A stretch of 20,000 nt of DNA from Trichodelitschia bisporula (GCA_010356995.1 ML996690.1:57510-77509), one strand, 5' to 3'; numbered from the stretch's first letter, positions 2,229 through 18,580 are shown. The notes: generated by a model not told the origin, from the sequence alone. Translations and numbers: made by a program.

Positions 2229-2627
2229 TGTTTTGAATGAGGAATAACAGTGCTCTGAGTCGTTTGAGATATTCGAGTTTGCTTAAGGGGAGGAGATCTG
2301 GGGAAAACTTCAACCGCCGCTTTATGCTTCGGGATGTGTGACTTGAAGCTTCTGTGACGGCACGCCGCGGTGTCTTAGTCTTGTAACCCTTTTGGAAGAA
2401 GTGTATACGGAACAAAAGCATAGAACGAATGACATTATGGCATCAAGACATCAAGGTACTAGGGCATTAAGCAAACGCATGAAAGCCAGAACCGTTCTCC
2501 AATGTATCATTCGCCGCAAGGCTTCCAATCTCGTGTTCCAAGCATCATTCAAGACATCTGCCATTGCCGAAGCAGCTTTCCAACATGGCTCTGAGAGACC
2601 AAGTCATCCATCATTTTATCAACCAAA

Positions 2628-3738
2628 TTAATCGGTCGCGTCGATGGCGAAATCCTGTTCGACGATACCATTAAGGAAACGGTCGATGGCGCCGAAGCAA
2701 CGCTCTTCGATCTCCTAGATCCACATCAGCTTCACCAAACGGCATAAACCCAAACCCACTGACCATTTCAACTAATATCTCTCGAGCAAGCATGATGTCG
2801 TCGAGATCGCAATGCTCAACCTCCTTTATTCACATCAGCTCAATCTAGCGGCACGACCCCGAGTCCACTCACCACTTCAAATGACATCCCCTCATCCAGC
2901 ATAATGCCGTCAACGCGGCAATATTCGTCCTCCTGGATCCACATGAGCTCCGTCCAGCGGCATAAACCCGAACCCACTCACCACTTCAATTAACATCTCT
3001 CGATCAAACATGATGTCGTCGACACCACAATGTTCAACCTTCTAAATACACATCAGCTCCATCCAGCAGCATTACCCGAACCCACCCACCGCTTCCGGGG
3101 ACGTCCATCCATTGGGCATCATGGAGTCAACACTGCGATATTCGCCCTCCTGATACATATCACCTCCATCGAACGGCATGCAACCAAACCCCTCCATCAC
3201 CTCATATGACGCCCCCCGGCTGGCCGCGGCATGGGCGTCAAGAGCATCGAAGACGATATCGGGGATCTGGTTTTGCTGGACAGCCTACTCCACATAAGCT
3301 CATCCAACCGCAAAAAGTCCTCCCACTCACCCTCTCCGGCGTCCCCAAATCATGCACAGCACACGGCCTGTCCGGCGCCCCAATCCACAGCCGCGCCCGG
3401 CAAGGCCAGTCCAAACGTCCCAGTTCCGCCTCATCCATCATGACAAGCTCACTCTGAGGCGAGATCGAACTATACCCGCTGTCGCGTCGCTCGAGAACAA
3501 CGATACCGGGACTTTCAAGAGCAAGTTTGACGACCGCATTAGCTTTCTCGGCTGGAGACGGGAGCTTGACACACCCGCAGTGGCGCGTGGTGAAGGGGAT
3601 GGTGTCGAGGAGGGCTATGGTCATGTCGACGCGCATCCGGGACTGCTTGGAACATGCTTCTCCCCATTGACAGCAGTAAAGGAGGTGCTCGTACTTGCTT
3701 GCGCAGGACGTGCAGTGCAACTCCACGGCACGGCACAT
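2628..3738 (-). CDS. Hypothetical protein (~289 aa) with a Cys-rich N-terminus and acidic 20-aa repeats; exons 3738-3331, 3284-3090, 3041-2982, 2932-2873, 2823-2764, 2714-2628
   Basis: Removing five GT-AG phase-0 introns (3330-3285, 3089-3042, 2981-2933, 2872-2824, 2763-2715) gives one continuous frame ending ...FAIDATD-TAA at 2628. Retaining any one of them causes a frameshift or a stop. Confidence 0.7.
2715..3200. repeat. Diverged tandem repeat, period 108-109 bp (60-nt exon + 48/49-nt intron), about 4.5 copies
   Basis: The plus-strand motif CACAT(C/G)AGCT...GCAT/GCAC...CCACT recurs near 2722, 2831, 2940 and 3050, with a more diverged copy near 3156. Confidence 0.9.
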
Positions 3739-4540
3739 GTTGTGCGGCTATCAATGGGGTCGCTCTGGGGTGAGGATGTGGGAGAATGTGGAAGTCTGCG
3801 AATAGTGAGCTGAGGATAGGGTGTGGTGGTGCACTCACGAGGCTGAGGGCAAAAGTGTTGACCACAACTGGACACTGGAGAACGGAGAAATGGAAAAACG
3901 CTTAAATGCACGACTACTCGCTGATAGTGATGTTGCGTGAAATGTGCTCGTCCCAACGGCATACTTGTAGGCCATGTATATACTCCTTCCAGCTTGTAAG
4001 TCGCTCCTTCCCAAGGCCACGACAGTACGTCGGATGGACTATGTTGACCGCTGGGCTAGATTTGTTGTCGACACCAATTACGAATCCGAAGCCGCCCTGG
4101 AGTATTATTGCACCTTTGAAAAATGGGTCCTTCAAAAGTCCTATTCATGTCTTGTGGATACGCTACACCCGAAGCAGTCCTGATAGAAAGCCCTGTTGAT
4201 GTCGTGTTGATGCAGTATACCCCAAGCAGTAACTGTGGTCAAGGTGAAGGAAGGAACGCACGAGGGCATCATCCGACATGACGATAACTGCGAACCATAA
4301 GCATACATTGATGACTGTACAGCAGAGCACATGTGGTGAAGATAAAGCGCAGCAACAAGAAGCCCGACCCAACCCGACGCAAGCCAGATTCAAACTTACC
4401 GCAGAAGCCAAACCAGATACACACAGTTCAGTGCGAACTCACCGTGCAAGCCAAACCGAGCGTACACACCTCAAATCCGACCAAACGGTCAGCCATACCC
4501 ACCTCACCCCCTCTCCACACGCAAACACCATCCCCAGCAC

Positions 4541-5320
4541 CTAAACCTCCTCCCAACTTGGATACGCCTCCAGCGCCTTCCCCATCGTAACCTCAAGCCC
4601 ATCCCACTCATCCGCCGCCCTTGCCCTCACACCGGCATACCGATCCCCGAGCGCAGCTCGGAACGCCTATAGTCATCAAGCATTAGCCCAGTCTCAAACA
4701 TCTACCAAATTCCCCCTCCCGCCCACCCGACCGGGACTCAGGGACAAGTACTCACATCCAGCACCAACCGCTGCCGATGCAAGCAGTGCGCAAGGGACGC
4801 ATAGAACCCCCCCGTCGTCTTGAGCACATCGCGCTGCTCCATGAGCAGGTGCAGCATGCGGCCGTGCTCGGAGACGAACTGCCCCCCCATTAGTCTCCCC
4901 CCTCCGATCCCGGGGACATAACTCACATTCCCCACCGCCGCCCCCAGCGCGCGCTCATCCGCCCCTCCCTCACTCAGCAAGTCCCCCTCATCCTCCGCCC
5001 TAAGCTCGCGAATCGACAGATTCGCAATTCCCGAGATCCTCTGCAGGAGGAGCAGAATCTCCTTTATACACAGTGGTTTCATCAGCCGTGCCCTTGCCCA
5101 CTCTGTAATCCCAAAACGAAGGGGATGGAGGACCTACGGGGGCGATATAACAATAAGCCTCCTCACTCAACAACCCATAGCACTCCCCATCCTCCCTAAT
5201 ACACCCGAGCGCCACATCCAACGCCCCGCACGCCGCGCGCATATCCTCCAGATTCGCCTTCAAGGGGCTCCAGGTGCCTGACGCTGAGGTCGGCAGCGCA
5301 GGATGACTCAAAAACGGCAT
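4541..5320 (-). CDS. Helical hypothetical protein (188 aa), distantly UVI-1-like; exons 5320-5138, 5061-4927, 4878-4756, 4666-4541
   Basis: Three phase-0 introns: GTAGGT..GCTGAT..AAG, GTGAGT..CTAAT..CAG and GTGAGT..GCTAAT..TAG. The spliced frame MPFLSHP...NFVSEHGRMLHLL...VLDAFRAAL...LEVTMGKALEAYPSWEEV* is open. The family assignment rests on a recalled pattern only. Confidence 0.65.
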
Positions 5321-6400: not shown

Positions 6401-7767
6401 CTAGCCACTGTGCAACTCCGTACACGGCCCGGCACCATCCCGACTCGGGCATCTCCCAGGCGCCGTACTCTCCACGCCGCTCATCGTCACAAGTGCTTCA
6501 GCGACCTGCATCCTATCCCCAAGCCCATCCATAACCCCTCCATTCCCCTCCCTCCCCCCCGCCCCCCTAACCTCCAAAACCGTCTCCCCCTGCAAAACCC
6601 CCGCAATCCACCCCCCCACCACCCCCCTCAACACCCCAAGCACCCCATTCTCCCTCCAAAAATGCCCCGCCCCAGGAACCTCCACCGCCTTAAACCTACT
6701 CCCAGGCCCCTCAATCCCCGCCGCCCACGCCCTCACCTTCCTCGCAGCCGTAAACCCATCCTCTCCCCCAAAAACTGCCAAACTGGGGTGTTCGGCAAGC
6801 TGCTTCGCCAACGCGCCCTTCTCGCGCTGCAGCGCCTGCGTGCCGAACGGGATGGCCGTGAACGTGCTCACCGGCGCCAGGAGCGGGCTGAGCAGCAAGT
6901 ATGCCGGCTGGAACACAAGTCCGATCTGCGTTACCGCTAGCTCGGCGGTATTGTGGCTGGATGTATACACGGGCCGGGGCGGGGGCCGGAAAGATGCGGC
7001 GTTCGGGATTGCCCGACCGGTGTGTCCTCGCGCTGCGGACACGACGGCGAGGTCCCATGCTACGCGGCGGAGGGCGGGGCCCGACGCTGGACCGTAGGCG
7101 CGGGTGAATATGGCAGCGGGGGTCGGGAGGTGTGTTGTGATTAAACTGCCGTAGGAGTAGCCGGCGAGGATGAAGGGCACTGTGTCAGGGTTATCGGGAG
7201 ATGGGGCGGGGAGCGGAATTGTGCCTTCCGGGAGAACGGCTTGGGTGGGGAGGGGGATGGAGCTCGCGGCACTTCCGTCGAGGGACATGTCCGCTACGCC
7301 CGCTGCCAGCGCGCCGTCCTCGCATCCAACACCCGCCGCGCGCGCGAGTTGCAGGATGAAGTACGCGTAGTGCGCGAGGCACGACGCGGCAGAGACATAG
7401 TCGTCGCATTCCGCGCGGCCGGTCCAGGACGAGCGGCCTTTGGACGAGGGCGCGCCGCTTGGATCATCAGTTCCTTGCTAGAAACAAGGGAGTGAGCGTA
7501 CCGGAAGTTAAACGTGCCTACCACGCATCCACGGTCACGCGCCTCGCGCACAGCCGCACACACAATCGGGTCATCGTAGTTTCCGCCGAGCGGGGCGTAG
7601 GGATGCGCGATGATGGCGATGGGGAGGGAGAGCGGCGGGGCGTGGCCGGGTAGGGGCGGGCCTGAAGGTCGAGGGGTGGCGCTGGGGGGGTGGAAAATGC
7701 GGCAGTCGAGCGGGAGACCGTCGTGCAGGGAGGGGATGGCGAAGGAGAAGGTTGGCGAGAGTGGCAT
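6401..7767 (-). CDS. Alpha/beta-fold hydrolase (440 aa); exons 7767-7502, 7457-6401
   Basis: HPYAPLGGNYDD, TFNFRGA (across the 44-nt intron 7501-7458), SSWTG, nucleophile elbow GYSYG, acid in GGEDGF and catalytic His in GAGHFW. Confidence 0.9.
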
Positions 7768-8307: not shown

Positions 8308-9720
8308 CTACTCGGCATCACTATCCACAGCCCTCGACACCATGAGGTCCGGATCCGGATCCTCATCCCCACTATCCAACAAATCCCGCCTCACAGCCGT
8401 AAGCCGACTCTCCTCCCCAGGCCCATCCTGCTCCCTCCTCCCCAACAACAAGCTCCCATCCCCATACAACTCTTCATGCTCATCCATATCCGACTCTCCA
8501 CTTTCCTTCACAGCATCGCCGCCAACCGCTCCCCGTAGCACCCGTCTCCCCTCCTCCAGAGCCTCCAACTCCGCCCCCGCACACGCAACAAGCAAATTCC
8601 AACCCCTCGCCTCAGCGCCCTCCTTCCCCTCACGCACAACCTCAATAACTCGCTCCATCTCCTCCAGCAGCGCGCGCCCAACCTCTGGCTCATCCAACAG
8701 TCGGGGCATATCCCGCCTCAACTGACTCTCAAATCCCCTAACCTCCTCGCAAATCCCCTTCCACACCCGCGCACCCACCTCAAGGGCCTTAGCCTCCCGA
8801 CGCGCCGCCCGCCCACGAGCCGCCAAGCTCCCCGCCCGCGCACTCCACGCCTCGCGCGCCGCACCCAGCGTCCGTCGAGCCGGCGGCAGAGAGAAGAACT
8901 CATCCCCACCGCTCCTGGGTCGTGGAAGGCGCTCGAGAAATGCGCCGCTCGTACGTTGCACCTCAGCCAACGCAGCGCGAAACGACGCGAGCCGTGCCTG
9001 GCCCTCGCCATCGCGCGTGCGCAGCGCGTCTTTAACCTGCGCCTCACGACGCCGCAGATCGGCGAGCTTAGCCTCGGTGGCGCGGATCGCATTGCCCAGA
9101 CGCTCCTCCTCGGCCCTCAGCGTGCGGGTTTCCCGCTCTGCATTCTCGGCTTGAGATGCGATTTCGGCTTCGAGGGCGGAGGAGCGCGCGGCCCACGTGT
9201 CCAGCTTGGCGAGGATGGATTTCTCGTCCGCGAGGGCAGAGTGTACGAGGCTGAGTTCGCGGTTTTTGAGCTGTGCGTTGGCGAGCATGGCGCGGTGCAG
9301 GGCGCGGCGGGTCGGGTTCAAGGCTAGGGGCTTGGAGGGGTGTGTGGAGGAGACGTGCGAGGCGCGGGAGCTTATGGTATGTGTATCGTCGTTTGTGGAG
9401 GAGGAATTGTGCGAGGGGCGCCGCGAGGTCGTGGTTCGTAGGGTGTGTGCTTCGGTGTCGTGGGCGTTGGATGGCGGGGCGGTGAGGGCGGCGGCCTGGG
9501 CGTCGAGGAGGGCTTGGATTCGGTCGTGGAGTGCCTGTTCTTCTCTTGACTGCAGCACGGCGAGTTCGTCGTCGTCGTCGACTGGCGGGAGGTCCATTGG
9601 GGGGAGAGTCGCGACGGAGTGGGCCACGGGAGGGGGAGGGACGGAGGGGGTTGGCGTGTGCCAGAGGGGGAGCTCGGTGGTTGATTCGCGGGGCTGGAGG
9701 ATGGAGCGGAGAAGCGACAT
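8308..9720 (-). CDS. atg28: Atg28-like coiled-coil protein (470 aa, single exon)
   Basis: Long ORF with a central coiled coil. The motifs IQALLDAQ, LPPARRTL, WNLLVACAGAELEAL and C-terminal DEDPDP resemble proteins annotated Atg28 in filamentous fungi. Confidence 0.7.
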   Translation of the reverse strand: MSLLRSILQPRESTTELPLWHTPTPSVPPPPVAHSVATLPPMDLPPVDDDDELAVLQSREEQALHDRIQALLDAQAAALTAPPSNAHDTEAHTLRTTTSRRPSHNSSSTNDDTHTISSRASHVSSTHPSKPLALNPTRRALHRAMLANAQLKNRELSLVHSALADEKSILAKLDTWAARSSALEAEIASQAENAERETRTLRAEEERLGNAIRATEAKLADLRRREAQVKDALRTRDGEGQARLASFRAALAEVQRTSGAFLERLPRPRSGGDEFFSLPPARRTLGAAREAWSARAGSLAARGRAARREAKALEVGARVWKGICEEVRGFESQLRRDMPRLLDEPEVGRALLEEMERVIEVVREGKEGAEARGWNLLVACAGAELEALEEGRRVLRGAVGGDAVKESGESDMDEHEELYGDGSLLLGRREQDGPGEESRLTAVRRDLLDSGDEDPDPDLMVSRAVDSDAE

Positions 9721-10457
9721 TGTGGGTTGTTGGGTGTCGTCCTTAGTTTCTTGGGAGAGAGAGAGGGGGGGAGGAAAGAGAAGTTAGTGATGTTGGTGCC
9801 TGTGGTGGGGATTCATTGTATGGAGTGAGGTAGGGAGACAAGGCGCGTGGGCAGGTCATCGGCGAGACAGGTACCGGGTCACGACATCACATGATGGGAT
9901 CTCACGCGCGGATATGGCGTTTCGTAAAAGGGGCTTTCAATGAATGGATGAATGAATCTAGAGTAGTGAGAAACAAAGCGAACTAAACACATCGGCTCAT
10001 TTATCAGTGAGAGATATCCGCGCGGCTACTGCGCTTGCCGACAAGCATGGATGGTGATGAAGCTCGCCTGGTCGCCCAGCCGCCGAGTCGTCGCACCCGG
10101 GTTTTCGACGTCGAAGGCGTGCGTTTCAAGGGTGAGGCCTGTGAAAGATGCAGGAAGCTTTAGTTGGCGACGGCTTGGTTGAACGGCGAGAGACCACGAC
10201 CTTCGCGACCTCTCCTCTACCTCACGCATCCACATCACAAGATCCGGCCAAGGGCTTAACTAGACGATCACAGTCACAGCATCCCACGACATCAAGATCC
10301 CACAAGCCAGGAGTACGGCTACGCATCTATACAGTCCTACAGTACCCTAGTCATCCAAACCCAAAAACGCCGACAAATGCTCACAAATCCTCTCGCTAAA
10401 AGACAACTCGGGACCAGCCCGCTAATGCTAGAACTACAGTACCGGATCTGTGATCAC

Positions 10458-11565
10458 TCACTCCCTCCCCGCCCAACGCCCCCTCCTCACCCGCGCCGCC
10501 GGCGTCGCCCTCGGCCCATCAAGCGTAGAGACAGCACCCTCCGTCACAGGTCCCGGCCCACCACCCACCGGGACGGTAGCCGCATCCCCCTCGCCCTGCC
10601 CCTCCGGCAATGCCGGCGGCGCACTCGTTGCCGGGGCCTCCTCCGCCCCCGAAGCGGGCGTTTCGTTCGCCGCAGCGCGCTGGCGGCCCTCATTCTCCTT
10701 CGCAAAGACCCTTAGGAGATTTTCCTCCCCAAGCGCGCCCTGGCTAAACCTAGCATTGAACTTCACAACGCGCTTAAACGCATTATAACTCTCGACATCG
10801 AGCGGAAGCGGCTCCGTCGCAAGTAGGAACGTAACCCCCTCCTTGCAGGGCGGTGTCGTCAAACTACCAGCATACGCGCGGAGCGGCGTGCTCGTGATGT
10901 GCTTCGCGATATCAGCCATATCAGCCGCTTCCCCCAGCGGTGTCGCGGTGCCGGGATTAGCGATGGCGGGGAGCGCGGCGGCGAGGGCTTTGACCAGCGG
11001 TGTTGCGGCGGTGGTGGAGAGGTCGAAGAGCAGTGCTACGACGACGAGGGAGCCGTCTGAGGGGGCTTCGTGCACCATGTGCATTTCGAGCGGGTAGTGC
11101 TCGTCGGACACGCGGTGCTCGGCCGGGGTGTGGAAGTGGAATTGTTTCAGACTGTATGCCTTGCCGTCGAAGGTGAGCGCGGAGGTGTTACCGCTGGCTT
11201 CGGAGAGGACTTCGACGGTTGAGCCGAGGTTTTCGAAGGTTAGGGGGCCCGTCGGGAGGGTGTAGCTTGTGGGGTTGGGGGCGGTAGCGATGCTGGAGTC
11301 TGCTTGGGGGTTAGGTTTGTTGGGTTGGAGGGGGGGAGGGGAAGGTACCGATGTTGATGGGCGATTGGAAGCGGCCTGCGCTGCAGGCTACGTTGTCGGC
11401 GGAGAGGGAGTCCCAGAGGACAGGCCCGGTTGTACCGGTGTAGCCGAATTTGGCGACTTCGATGGTGTTGTTGCCTGTTGAGCGGCGGGGGAGGTAGGAT
11501 GTGCCGTGGAGGCAGCTGGCGGAGGCGAGGCCGGCCAGCGCGGCGAGGGGGAGGAGAGTGTACAT
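10458..11565 (-). CDS. Secreted alpha-class carbonic anhydrase (352 aa); exons 11565-11349, 11299-10458
   Basis: Signal peptide MYTLLPLAALAGLASA, QSPINI, zinc ligands in QFHFH...EH...EMHMVH, YAGSLTTPPCKEGV and FNAR. The 49-nt intron 11348-11300 reads GTACCT...CTAAC...CAG. Confidence 0.95.
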
Positions 11566-13885: not shown

Positions 13886-16197
13886 CTACAACTTAACCCC
13901 CCAAACCCCCCTCCCCCCCGCAACACCCACCCACTCCCCCCCCTGCGCCGTAAGCGCACTCTGCGGCGCCCAACTGAGGTTCGCAACCTCATACTCACAC
14001 CGCCAACTCGCGGCGGGGCCCTTCAAACTCACGCCCTGTCCCTGCGTGCTCGTCCCCGGCGCCCCAGCCGCACCCCCCTGCTGCTGGCCGCCCGAAGGCG
14101 TCGCCGCATTCCCACTAACCGGCGCGGGGATCGCCGCGTCGCCATTAAGCACGGCACCGTTATGCGAGTTCAACAAATCCCAGACTAAGACGAGAGAGTC
14201 ATCGGCGCCGGACGCGAGCATACCCCTTCGGTTAGGCGCCCATTCCACCGCCGTGATAGGCGCGGCGTGGCCGCGCAGCTCGAGGAGTGCCTGCCCCGGC
14301 TGGCGCACGTCCAGGATGCGGATTATATTGCTGTCGGCCGCGAAGGTGGCGAGGAGGTGGGAGTCGTGCGGCGAGGCGGCGAGGCGCAGGAGGGGTGGGG
14401 CGTAGGTCAGGGTTTGCTGGGCGCGGGTGGGGGACATGCGGTCTGGTGTGCCTGGGGGGTTAGATACGAAAGATTGGGGGGGGCGGGGGGGAGGGGGGGG
14501 CGTACCTTTGTCCTTGTCGCCTGGTTGCTTGTCCGAGGGCTCGTAGATGATGGTGCTGTGCTCCAGACTGCGCAGATCGAACATGCGGACGCTGCCGTCT
14601 GCGCCGCAGCTGACGAAGACGTCGACGCTGCCGGCGCAGAAGCGCACGTCGAAGACCTCCTTGTCGTGGGCGATGAGCTGCGTCTTTGCGGTCAGGGTAG
14701 GGATGTCCCAGATTGTGCATGTCGTGTCGATGCTGCTCGTGATGATCAGCTTCGGGGACAGCGTGTTCCAGTCCAATGACGTGAGCGGCGCCGTGTGCTC
14801 TGGCGTCTTGGAGTTGGATAGCAATGCCAGCGGCGTCAGCTTCTGCGGGGCCGGTTCGCGCGTGTTAACGCTCGACGAACGCGTGATTGTGCTGGATATA
14901 TTGGCCGATGGGGGCGTCGAAGGCAGCGACCACAGCCGCAGGTGGTCGCCTGACGTCGCTAGCAGGTCCGTCGACTGTTTCTGCGAGATAGGGGGCTCCC
15001 ACAGGATGCGAGTTACGGGATACGAGCAGGTAGCCTCAGCGATGCGCGTGTACTCGAGCCCGAACGGCGGAGCGCCTGGCATCGTCACTTCCTGCGGCGT
15101 AATGGTCGTGTCCAAGATTTGGATCTGAACAGCATTAAACAAGGCGACATAAAAGGGGGCGAAAGCCCAGCAACGGGTAAACCCAAACGTACGAAATTAT
15201 GCGGGTCCTCGAGATAGCTCCCCACAGCAATCTTGCCAGCGCTATTACCCTGCGGCACCGGGTACTTGCACCAGTCAAAGGCAAACACCGCCCACGGCGC
15301 GAGGTAGTTGCTGTTCGTCGGCTGCTTATTGTCGACCTGGTCACCAAACATAGCCGTACCCGTCATAACCTCATCGCCCATATTCGAGTTAGCGCGCGGA
15401 CGGATCTGATCCAGCGCCAGCGGCGAATGCGACACGGCGCTGTTGGGCGTCTGCGACGAGAAGAGCTTCTGGCTCGGCGTCTGCGAGGAGTACTTTTGCG
15501 GGTCTGGGTTCGCGCCGAACGGCACGTACTTTTGCTCCAGGCCCGCGGGACTCGACCGCGAGTGCGAGTGCGAAGTGTTCATGGTGTTGGAGCGCGTCGG
15601 CAGCGTATATTGCTGCGCGTTGGTGTTGATGTGCGGGACTGTGGGGACCGTCGACGGCGCCGTGTACACTGATTGTGGGGGCGGACGGCCTGACGCGGGC
15701 TGCAGACTGCCTGGCACGCCGGAGGACATGGAGGAGTACATGTTCATTTGCTGAGCAGATTGGGAGTAGTCGGTAGGTGTGGAAGAGTATAGCTGTTGCT
15801 GCTGCTGCTGGGTCTGGCTCGGCAAGTGGGCCGGCTGCGAACTGGGCATCTGAATGTCCTCTGGAAGTCTCGCCATTTGTGCGCGACGAGCGTCGAACTG
15901 CTGATACTGGCTAGAAGCGGACGAGGGGGTTGTGGGCATCGCCAGTGAGGACTGCGAGTGCTGCGAGTGCTGCGAGTGCTGCGGGGCACTCTGCTGGCCC
16001 GAGAGAAGCACGTCGGTGCCGGCTGTCGTGGTGCCTGCGGTCGCAGTGCGCAGATTGCCCGTTGGCGCACCGATAGAGCCCAGAGCCTGGGCGGCCTGAA
16101 AGAGGCCCGCTACAGCGCCGGGCTGAGTGGGTGGGTTGGTGTTGTTGGTGCTTGGGTTTGAAGAGCTTTGGTGGTGAGAATGAGAATGGAAGGGCAT
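13886..16197 (-). CDS. DCAF7/WDR68/AN11-family WD40 protein (yeast YPL247C-like) with a long Q/S-rich N-terminus; exons 16197-15193, 15124-14506, 14451-13886
   Basis: LLATSGDHLRLW, APLTSLDWN, SSIDTTCTIWD, KTQLIAHDKEVFDV, GADGSVRMFDLRSLEHSTIIYE and PLLRL. Intron 15192-15125 (GTACGT..CAG); probable in-frame intron 14505-14452 (GTACGC..CTAAC..CAG). The start codon is uncertain. Confidence 0.92.
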
Positions 16198-16495
16198 CGT
16201 GCGCTGCCGCTTGACCTGGGATTAGGAGCAAGCAGGCAGATTAGGGCTGGGGCCGATACGCGGGTGAGGAGTGCGGTTGATAAATGGTGGGGGAGGGGGG
16301 GGTGAAGGATGGCGGGGGACAGAAGGGGTTGGTGGAGAGGATGAAGATGGGGGGGGGCCAAGGCCAGGGCGCTTCGGACGAGCTGTGCCACTTCTCCTGT
16401 CCTCCTCACTTGCTCCACTTCGTCAAGCCGAGAGAAGAAGAGAACAGTTCAACAATTAGAGAAGCGATCTGCCATATGTATATTATGGTCTGAGA

Positions 16496-16768: not shown

Positions 16769-17127
16769 ATCATCGGCATCATCGCCAGCCACCAGCCGAA
16801 TTTATGGTTCTTCCCTTCACTTACGCTCCAGTGAGAGGACACGACTTCACTGCCTTCAATTGCATGTTGAACGCGATCATTCAGCTGTTCGGCTCAGGAT
16901 TGCAGGCTCGGATGCCACATCTCGGAACCACAGCGTGTCCGATCAGCAGTCATACTGAATGAATCTCGCAGTTCAAGTACCTCGAATCCGTCACTCTCAC
17001 GGAAGCTGCTTCCTCAGTCACAGCACGCACTGCCGGACAGCAAAAAGAAGGACCCTTCCAGTCACCAACTGGCCTCTATCAAACACTCGCCCCAGCAGCA
17101 CCCTAGGAGCCAAAAAGAGCCAAAAAA

Positions 17128-17234
17128 ACATACAGCAGATGGGATTCGCTGCTGGTCACCCACGCAACTACTAGTCAACCGGTTCAAAGCTTAACTTCAG
17201 TGAGCAGACGGGGACTGGTGTTCTCTTTGACCTG
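17128..17234 (-). rRNA. 5S rRNA gene, 5' end cut off by the assembly gap
   Basis: Reverse complement has GTTAAGC, TAGTAGTTGCGTGGGTGACCAGCAGCGAATCC and the 3' end GCTGTATGT, followed by an oligo-T Pol III terminator. Confidence 0.9.
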
Positions 17235-17739
17235 NNNNNNNNNNNNNNNNNNNNNNNNNNNNNNNNNNNNNNNNNNNNNNNNNNNNNNNNNNNNNNNNNN
17301 NNNNNNNNNNNNNNNNNNNNNNNNNNNNNNNNNNNNNNNNNNNNNNNNNNNNNNNNNNNNNNNNNNNNNNNNNNNNNNNNNNNNNNNNNNNNNNNNNNNN
17401 NNNNNNNNNNNNNNNNNNNNNNNNNNNNNNNNNNNNNNNNNNNNNNNNNNNNNNNNNNNNNNNNNNNNNNNNNNNNNNNNNNNNNNNNNNNNNNNNNNNN
17501 NNNNNNNNNNNNNNNNNNNNNNNNNNNNNNNNNNNNNNNNNNNNNNNNNNNNNNNNNNNNNNNNNNNNNNNNNNNNNNNNNNNNNNNNNNNNNNNNNNNN
17601 NNNNNNNNNNNNNNNNNNNNNNNNNNNNNNNNNNNNNNNNNNNNNNNNNNNNNNNNNNNNNNNNNNNNNNNNNNNNNNNNNNNNNNNNNNNNNNNNNNNN
17701 NNNNNNNNNNNNNNNNNNNNNNNNNNNNNNNNNNNNNNN
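17235..17739. other. Assembly gap (505 N)
   Basis: Run of N. Confidence 1.
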
Positions 17740-17832
17740 TGGTCACCCACGCAACTACTAGTCAACCGGTTCAAAGCTTAACTTCAGTGAGCAGACGGGG
17801 ACTGGTGTTCTCTTTGACCTGTGGCCGTATGT
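17740..17832 (-). rRNA. 5S rRNA gene, 3' end cut off by the assembly gap
   Basis: Starts ACATACGGCCACAGGTCAAAGAGAAC at 17832. Positions 17740-17821 are identical to 17153-17234. Confidence 0.9.
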
Positions 17833-18009
17833 GCTGGATTATGGAGGCAACTAACTGATAGCCAGTGGAAAGTTAACAGCCTCATCAAAAGAGCATGAGC
17901 ACACCTCCAAGGAGGTCCCAGGTTAGATTCAGGTTGCGTTCAGCAACGGACTAACCCTCACCCGACCGGCTAGCCAAACAGAAGACCCGCCGAGTGCAGA
18001 AAGACAAAA

Positions 18010-18127: not shown

Positions 18128-18464
18128 GATGGACTGTATCGTTAATTAAATAATACCTGGCAAAAAAGACGGAAGCATTGTCAAAAGAAGTGTTAGCTCT
18201 CCGAGCGAGAGCGTTCTTGGGTTGGAATAGGGGACGTGCGTTAAGCTGCGGAGCATCTCCCCTCGATCAGCCGGCTGAGCAGAAAGCTTCACGGACCACC
18301 TGAAAAATTATCATGGCTACCTCGCCTGGCAGATTTTGCGGACGGGACAGCTATGACTTTTTCGGCTGGTCCTTCGGCCAGAGTGTCGGTTTACATTAAG
18401 TTTCGGAGCTCCTCCCGCTGAACGGGCCGATCAGCAAGCTTCCGTGGTGCAAAAAGGTCAAAAA

Positions 18465-18580
18465 ACATACAGCAACTGGGATTCGCTGCTGGTCACCCAC
18501 GCAACTACTAGTCAACCGGTTCAAAGCTTGACTTCGGTGAGCAGACGGGGACTGGTGTTCTCTTTGGCCTGTGTCTATGT
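18465..18580 (-). pseudogene. 5S rRNA copy with a damaged 5' end (116 nt), likely pseudogene
   Basis: 5' end is ACATAGACACAGGCC against ACATACGGCCACAGGTC: a 2-nt deletion that disrupts helix I. Further substitutions lie near box A. The T-run terminator is retained. Confidence 0.7.

Follow-up and report, generated by a model that had tools for sequence, protein, structure and literature searches.

Gene architecture

The DNA analyzed here is a 20,000-nt stretch of Trichodelitschia bisporula (GCA_010356995.1, ML996690.1:57510-77509), referred to below as the window, and is fungal nuclear DNA. Neighboring genes at 10458-11387 (-) and 13886-15196 (-) include a eukaryotic-type (alpha) carbonic anhydrase (PF00194, E=1.1e-24) and a WD40 beta-propeller protein, and the long minus-strand frames at 6401-7477, 8308-9783 and 15085-16221 matched no Pfam family. 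The gene under study (Table 1) has a reading frame that is open from the ATG at 3738 to the TAA at 2628 once five canonical introns are removed. These five segments, hereafter the sister introns, start with GT(G/C)(A/G)GT, contain GCTNAT and end with AG. A further segment at 3150-3200, the candidate, resembles them. Exons 2 to 7 measure 84, 60, 60, 60, 60 and 87 nt. The predicted product is 272 aa long without the candidate and 289 aa with it, and 291 aa in the public gene model.

Table 1. Coordinates of the gene and its parts, numbered from the first nucleotide of the window
Feature	Position	Strand	Description
Whole coding region	2628..3738	-	ATG 3738-3736, TAA ending at 2628; seven exons
Exon 1	3331..3738	-	136 codons, cysteine-rich N-terminal part; identical (100%) to residues 1-136 of public model P0001
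Intron copy 1	3285..3330	-	46 nt, GTGAGT...GCTTAT...TAG; profile match E=3e-07; outside RNA contig coverage
Exon 2	3201..3284	-	84 nt with GT 3200 as donor; 87 nt, to 3198, in the ancestral register
Candidate	3150..3200	-	3197-3150, 48-nt intron paralogue; 3200-3198, GTG codon
Exon 3	3090..3149	-	60-nt exon of the repeat unit; RNA contig over 3090-3117
Intron copy 3	3042..3089	-	48 nt, GTGGGT...GCTGAT...TAG; two in-frame stops; spliced in RNA contig
Exon 4	2982..3041	-	60 nt; sequence and RNA contig
Intron copy 4	2933..2981	-	49 nt, GTGAGT...GCTCAT...CAG; full 49 nt spliced in RNA contig
Exon 5	2873..2932	-	60 nt; sequence and RNA contig
Intron copy 5	2824..2872	-	49 nt, GTGAGT...GCTGAT...AAG; in-frame stop; by sequence and profile, unbridged by RNA
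Exon 6	2764..2823	-	60 nt; by sequence
Intron copy 6	2715..2763	-	49 nt, GTCAGT...GCTGAT...TAG; by sequence and profile, unbridged by RNA
Exon 7 and stop codon	2628..2714	-	87 nt; RNA contig over 2459-2715
3' untranslated region	2459..2627	-	minimum extent, given by the reach of the transcript contig

Exon-intron units in tandem

The 3' half of the gene is a tandem array of units of about 109 nt, each made up of a 60-nt exon and a 48-49-nt phase-0 intron. Tandem Repeats Finder reported only 2712-3095, with a period of 109, 3.5 copies and 73% matches. In an alignment of six units, each unit comprises one exon and one intron and the units follow one another head to tail. Copies that lie head to tail and span both exon and intron are the mark of an internal tandem duplication of an exon-intron unit, and this is the arrangement found. 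In whole-unit alignments, units 3-6 share 64-83% mutual identity, and units 1 and 2 share only 48-58% identity with every other unit. Units 1 and 2, the latter being the unit of the candidate, are the older copies. A length of 109 nt is found in three of the four young units (3-6), that is, in three of the five sister units. Because 109 is not a multiple of three, the array encodes protein only if its introns are removed.

The initial annotation looked to a phylogeny of the six segments, rooted with outgroup orthologues, for the direction of change. The tree gave no such direction: none of the three inner branches of the six-unit tree was supported, units 1 and 2 were placed on long branches, and the collections searched held no outgroup orthologue. 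A comparison of units 4 and 6 yielded a transition to transversion count of 14:5, an excess that could reflect repeat-induced point mutation.

Splicing of the sister introns

RNA evidence was drawn from two coded runs guessed to be RNA, X1 (share 0.15) and X2 (share 0.00); the search over 2550-3850 listed no run on record as RNA. X1 supplied two contigs within 2400-4000, at 2459-2715 and 2872-3117, both placed with zero mismatches and the latter containing two joints. No contig was placed over 3118-4000, and X2 supplied none anywhere within 2400-4000. The X1 contig with joints is 151 nt long and aligns in blocks 2872-2931, 2981-3041 and 3090-3117. Its joint at 3041|3090 skips the 48 nt of 3042-3089, which are bounded by CT..AC on the plus strand and therefore by GT..AG on the gene strand. 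Its second joint skips 49 nt, corresponding to 2933-2981 after the cut is moved by one position. The contig departs from the genome after 2872 with two unaligned letters, and at its other end it stops at 3117, 33 nt short of the candidate.

Introns 3 and 4 are true introns, since the X1 contig joins their flanking exons exactly. The claim of the initial annotation that the sister segments are spliced thus holds for two of the five (3042-3089 and 2933-2981), which are removed from mature RNA at GT...AG boundaries; the other three are unbridged by that contig. Both spliced introns carry a signal that departs from the form prevailing in the array, namely the donor GTGGGT in intron 3 and the branch site GCTCAT in intron 4.

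The candidate segment

The initial annotation described 3150..3197 as a sixth intron homologue that has AT in place of the GT donor and GGTGAT in place of GCTNAT, and that reads in frame. Re-reading of the sequence bears this out. On the minus strand, 3197..3150 comprises 48 nt, is stop-free as quoted there and is in frame with the flanking exons; the translations given for the sister introns are likewise correct on recomputation. A GTG codon (3200..3198) lies directly before the 48 nt, and the resulting 51-nt segment (3200..3150) consists of 17 open codons translating as VMEGFGCMPFDGGDMYQ.

Homology to the sister introns was assessed by pairwise comparison and by profile search. Gapless identity of the candidate is 31/48 to intron 2981..2933, 32/48 to 2763..2715 and 29/48 to 2872..2824. 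Trained on the other five copies with the candidate left out, an nhmmer profile searched against both strands of the 20-kb window recovered the candidate in register (E=0.0013, 13.8 bits), and the next unrelated match had E=0.53. The end of the exon before the candidate, TATGAGGTG, aligns with the sister exon ends TTTGAAGTG and ATTGAAGTG, and the exon that follows begins with GAGG as its sisters do. Because exon end and exon start both line up, the gapless register, in which AT stands for the ancestral GT, is the best alignment. A MAFFT alignment of the bare introns placed GT 3200 on the GT of the sisters at the cost of two gaps; it was rejected because the gapless register also aligns the terminal GTG codon.

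Column by column, the candidate keeps 19 of the 25 intron positions that are invariant in the five sisters. It deviates at columns 1 (G to A), 5 and 6 (GT to AG), 17, 35 (the C of GCTNAT to G) and 40, so that four of the six deviating columns belong to the donor (1, 5, 6) or the branch site (35). In intron 1, which is equally diverged, five of the 30 columns that do not vary among units 3-6 are changed, and these changes leave its donor, branch site and acceptor untouched. The candidate reads ATGGAG for GTGAGT and GGTGAT for GCTGAT. Its 5' end is AT (3197-3196), where all five sisters have GT, and it lacks the GT or GC with which a U2-type intron begins. A CTRAY branch site is also lacking, with GTGAT in place of CTGAT, although CTRAY is a soft criterion. 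The 3' end is intact: CAG at 3152-3150 is aligned with the AG of the sisters. The GT at 3200 that the initial annotation pointed to as the possible start of a 51-nt intron (3200-3150) is present. It is the sole adjacent GT and reads GTGATG.

The candidate is the only one of the six copies compared that is both 3n in length and stop-free. Retention of any sister intron would disrupt the reading frame: four of the five are 3n+1 in length, and the only 3n sister has two stops. A random 51-mer of local composition was stop-free in 46% of draws; among the five sister introns, three are open in frame 0 and one has a 3n length. Taken together, the 3n and stop-free state has a chance of roughly 0.1-0.2 and favors retention only moderately. 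Differences between candidate and sisters fall on the three codon positions as [6,4,6] and [4,6,5], with no third-position excess. The true exons, at [5,2,3] and [6,7,6], show no such excess either, so the codon-position test is powerless in this gene.

The predicted protein

The public model P0001 (291 aa) bears the source name hypothetical protein of Trichodelitschia bisporula. Its exons were rebuilt exactly as 3738-3331, 3275-3090, 3041-2982, 2947-2873, 2823-2764 and 2714-2628. P0001 takes the candidate as coding, as its residues 162-178. Its first intron (3330-3276) ends in a CAG that lies 9 nt beyond the TAG homologous to the acceptors of the sisters, and only 34 nt (2981-2948) are removed at intron 4, which adds five codons (LMWIQ) that are missing from the X1 contig. 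Since the X1 contig contradicts this 34-nt intron, P0001 was not guided by RNA here, and its treatment of the candidate is no evidence for retention.

Searches for relatives returned little. With exon 1 as the query, an exhaustive phmmer search of 1.84 billion representatives returned two matches, P0001 itself and a bacterial repeat protein. The latter, P0002 (2903 aa), aligns to residues 37-100 of exon 1 (3331-3738) in five stretches with 26% identity (E=3.3e-10), an E-value that probably sums many weak repeat matches. A word-index search with P0001 retrieved only P0001 itself among proteins of near length (1 of 826 candidates), and none of 40 candidates of shorter length passed. Scanning of metagenome contigs matched 99 pattern stretches, of which none was confirmed. 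No Pfam family was found for exon 1 or for the 70-aa frame through the candidate. In the ESM Atlas, the best feature score was 0.81, all structure TM-scores were at or below 0.32 and the Atlas model scored 0.36. The AlphaFold2 model, made without an alignment, has a mean pLDDT of 37.6 and shows no confident fold; residues 161-180 belong to its lowest-scoring part.

Exon and intron copies are equally diverged, with values of 0.83 for exons 4 and 6 and 0.81 for introns 4 and 6 (2764-3149 versus 2715-3089). Because the exons have diverged as much as the introns and show no third-position excess, protein-level constraint on the repeat region looks weak. Four copies have kept an exon length of exactly 60 nt, five have kept their splice signals, and the frame has stayed open, which suggests that at least a spliceable, translatable transcript has been maintained.

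Origin and fate of the candidate

The explanation we prefer is that the gene grew by internal tandem duplication of the unit of about 109 nt (60-nt exon plus 48-49-nt phase-0 intron). As the unit consists of exon and intron, every duplication would have copied an intron along with its exon. The intron copy of unit 2 would have decayed: a G to A change at its first base would have destroyed the ancestral donor, +5, +6 and the branch-site C would also have been altered, and loss of one base would have brought it to 48 nt. Since the candidate is 3n and stop-free, a transcript that keeps it would stay in frame and be unmarked for nonsense-mediated decay (NMD), and on this basis we read it as mostly retained. 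We see a nearly even chance that most of the mRNA keeps the candidate and that it adds 16 codons to the translated sequence (17 with the GTG). It would then be an intron copy that has been de-intronised (exonised), in a gene that is lineage-specific and poorly constrained.

The initial annotation had left two origins side by side, one in which an intron became exon and one in which the introns arose from a 36-codon coding repeat. Three parts of its reading hold, namely the homology to the introns of the gene, the loss of the ancestral donor and of the branch-site C, and the open frame. The coding-repeat origin is the less economical one, because five copies, including the equally diverged copy 1, carry all three signals.

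Against retention stands a constitutively spliced intron whose donor has moved 3 nt upstream to the GT at 3200-3199, with 51 nt removed. We consider this unlikely, and equally so its corollary of a protein one valine shorter than the sister repeats would give. The GT at 3200 is preceded by AG (-2, -1) and followed by GA (+3, +4), which counts against retention, and this donor (GAG|GTGATG) would pair well with U1 from -2 to +4, judging from the known 5' end of U1. The AG at 3151-3150 is intact and a near-consensus branch-like GTGAT (for CTGAT) lies at the usual distance, 10 nt from the end, so that an in-frame intron of 51 nt could be formed, and this length is within the 46-53-nt range of the other short, strongly canonical intron candidates in the window. 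The donor itself is the difficulty: at +5 and +6 it has T and G, where all five sisters keep G and T, and the loss of these two letters is counted for retention. Neither does GTGATG fit GTNNGT, the donor form of filamentous ascomycetes given in the cited part of PMC2848559. The branch-site C, kept in all five sisters, is changed as well. This change says little, because the commonest CTRAY-type motif occurs in only 43-51% of introns in four filamentous ascomycetes (PMC2483917, Table 2, the part of that paper used here) and because intron 4, with CTCAT, is spliced; the deviant donor GTGGGT of intron 3 is spliced too. A shifted donor would also make the 3n, stop-free state a coincidence of the order calculated above, in a class of short introns that, according to the portion of PMC2911113 drawn on here, is under-represented in fungi and other eukaryotes, which is explained by selection for introns whose retention NMD can see. 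The prior leans the other way. In the cited excerpt of PMC2740785, none of 28,256 introns in four Cryptococcus species was found to be de-intronised, although boundaries had shifted and alternative splicing did occur; this favors a shifted or an alternative donor.

Alternative splicing of this kind would make the candidate similar to an exitron: the weak shifted donor would be used in part, and both the 272-aa and the 289-aa form would be made, neither of them seen by NMD. This too is improbable, to about the degree of a constitutive shifted donor. The unspliced form has the features of an exitron, being in frame and free of stops over 51 nt (17 codons) with coding exons 2 and 3 on either side. 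The class is characterized, in the cited section of PMC4484396, by weaker splice sites, absence of stops and an excess of 3n lengths, and the candidate looks alike. A precedent among fungi is the in-frame retained 60-nt intron of Yarrowia, which gives two full-size proteins (PMC2911113, in the portion already referred to). However, most exitrons studied so far stem from sequence that was ancestrally coding, and no more than about 3% of them align to introns according to the same section of PMC4484396, so that the candidate would have the rarer origin.

It is very unlikely that the frame is without biological meaning, the locus being a young or decaying transcribed orphan whose upstream part, with the candidate in it, is untranslated or lies outside the mature transcript, with an open frame that is due to chance. 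The dearth of relatives, Pfam families and confident folds described above would be expected of such a locus, as would repeat exons that diverge as fast as the introns without codon-position bias, but the transcript is spliced precisely at phase-0 sites, 272 codons are open over seven exons, each of the four repeat exons has a length of exactly 60 nt and the signals are intact in all five sister introns.

Most improbable is intronisation, in which the candidate kept the state of an ancestral 36-codon coding repeat and the splice signals arose once and were copied into the other five units: unit 2 sits on a long branch of a tree with no supported inner branch, so that one gain would cost the same as one loss if unit 2 branched earliest, and frame 0 is still open in three of the five sisters, but gain requires the joint appearance of three signals against the loss of one base, unit 1, as diverged as unit 2, has the full signal set, three of five sister units measure 109 rather than 108 nt, and the intron-like part of unit 2 is 62-68% identical to the sisters (47 nt) against 50-56% for the whole unit.

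The better conservation of the intron-like part fits an ancestral intron that has decayed only at its signals. Loss is preferred over gain because unit 1 has all signals, because of the 109-nt units, and because the intron part is better conserved with its differences concentrated on the signals. With decay of an intron copy as the preferred reading, we tentatively propose that a duplicated spliceosomal intron has become 16-17 codons beside five spliced paralogues, or else an intron-born exitron. If this is true, the locus would present a natural allelic series of changes from intron to exon, consisting of +1 G to A, loss of +5 G and +6 T, branch-site C to G and the removal of one base.

Comparison with known systems

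Conversions between introns and exons are often discussed but, to our knowledge, rarely documented. The duplication route to new introns was reportedly discussed by Gao and Lynch in 2009. Under the classical AGGT model, new splice sites arise from a duplication within an exon. In the present fungal gene, for which no relatives were found, it is instead a complete, working intron that has been copied, and this at least five times. The array agrees with intron multiplication by internal tandem duplication in that the unit is a whole exon plus a whole intron, arranged head to tail in one gene, and the locus shows cleanly how introns can multiply along with the exons beside them. This duplication route to new introns is discussed for Drosophila and potato (PMC2891723, PMC4974935).

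If retained, the candidate would be a de-intronisation, the term of Roy (2009), in that a former intron without its boundary signal lies in frame between coding exons. The survey of 28,256 Cryptococcus introns in which no such case turned up is Roy's (PMC2740785). The ancestral state was taken from orthologues in other species in that study, whereas here it is legible from five paralogues in the same transcript. Exitrons (Marquez et al. 2015; PMC4484396, section cited above) share with the candidate a stop-free 3n length, weak signals and a frame kept either way. They are nevertheless a class defined by observed alternative splicing and mostly derived from coding sequence, while the candidate is intron-derived.

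Near-identical short introns present in several copies are also known as introner-like elements of Dothideomycetes (PMC4457414, in the part cited), and the present introns are similarly short and multi-copy in a fungus of the same class. Introner-like elements insert alone into unrelated genes, whereas these copies lie in one gene, at a fixed period and together with exons. No copy in an unrelated gene, independent of the flanking exons, was found, the profile giving no further copy in the 20-kb window (next match E=0.33 or 0.53). As far as the window shows, the array is not an introner-like element.

Among the papers listed for the organism name, none deals with this locus, and none with introns as judged by title and start of abstract. 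The case is a new example of known processes and serves as an illustration; it is no new mechanism. Any biological effect is probably minor. The gene has neither a known function nor relatives in the collections searched, and nothing points to constraint at the protein level.

Other features of the window

Four further segments of 46-89 nt, at 454-499, 4667-4755, 4879-4926 and 18418-18470 (-), carry strong intron signals of the form GTGAGT or GTATGT ... CT[AG]AT ... YAG. The last branch-site position is T rather than C in all four, as in the GCTGAT of the gene described here. Because the pattern scan required CTRAY, only this last letter of the branch site is informative.

A run of 505 N at 17235-17739 has one and the same sequence of approximately 80 nt on either side (about 17153-17234 and 17740-17821). 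It looks like an assembly gap with overlapping edges rather than a real duplication, and the low G+C figure for 17001-18000 is due to this run.
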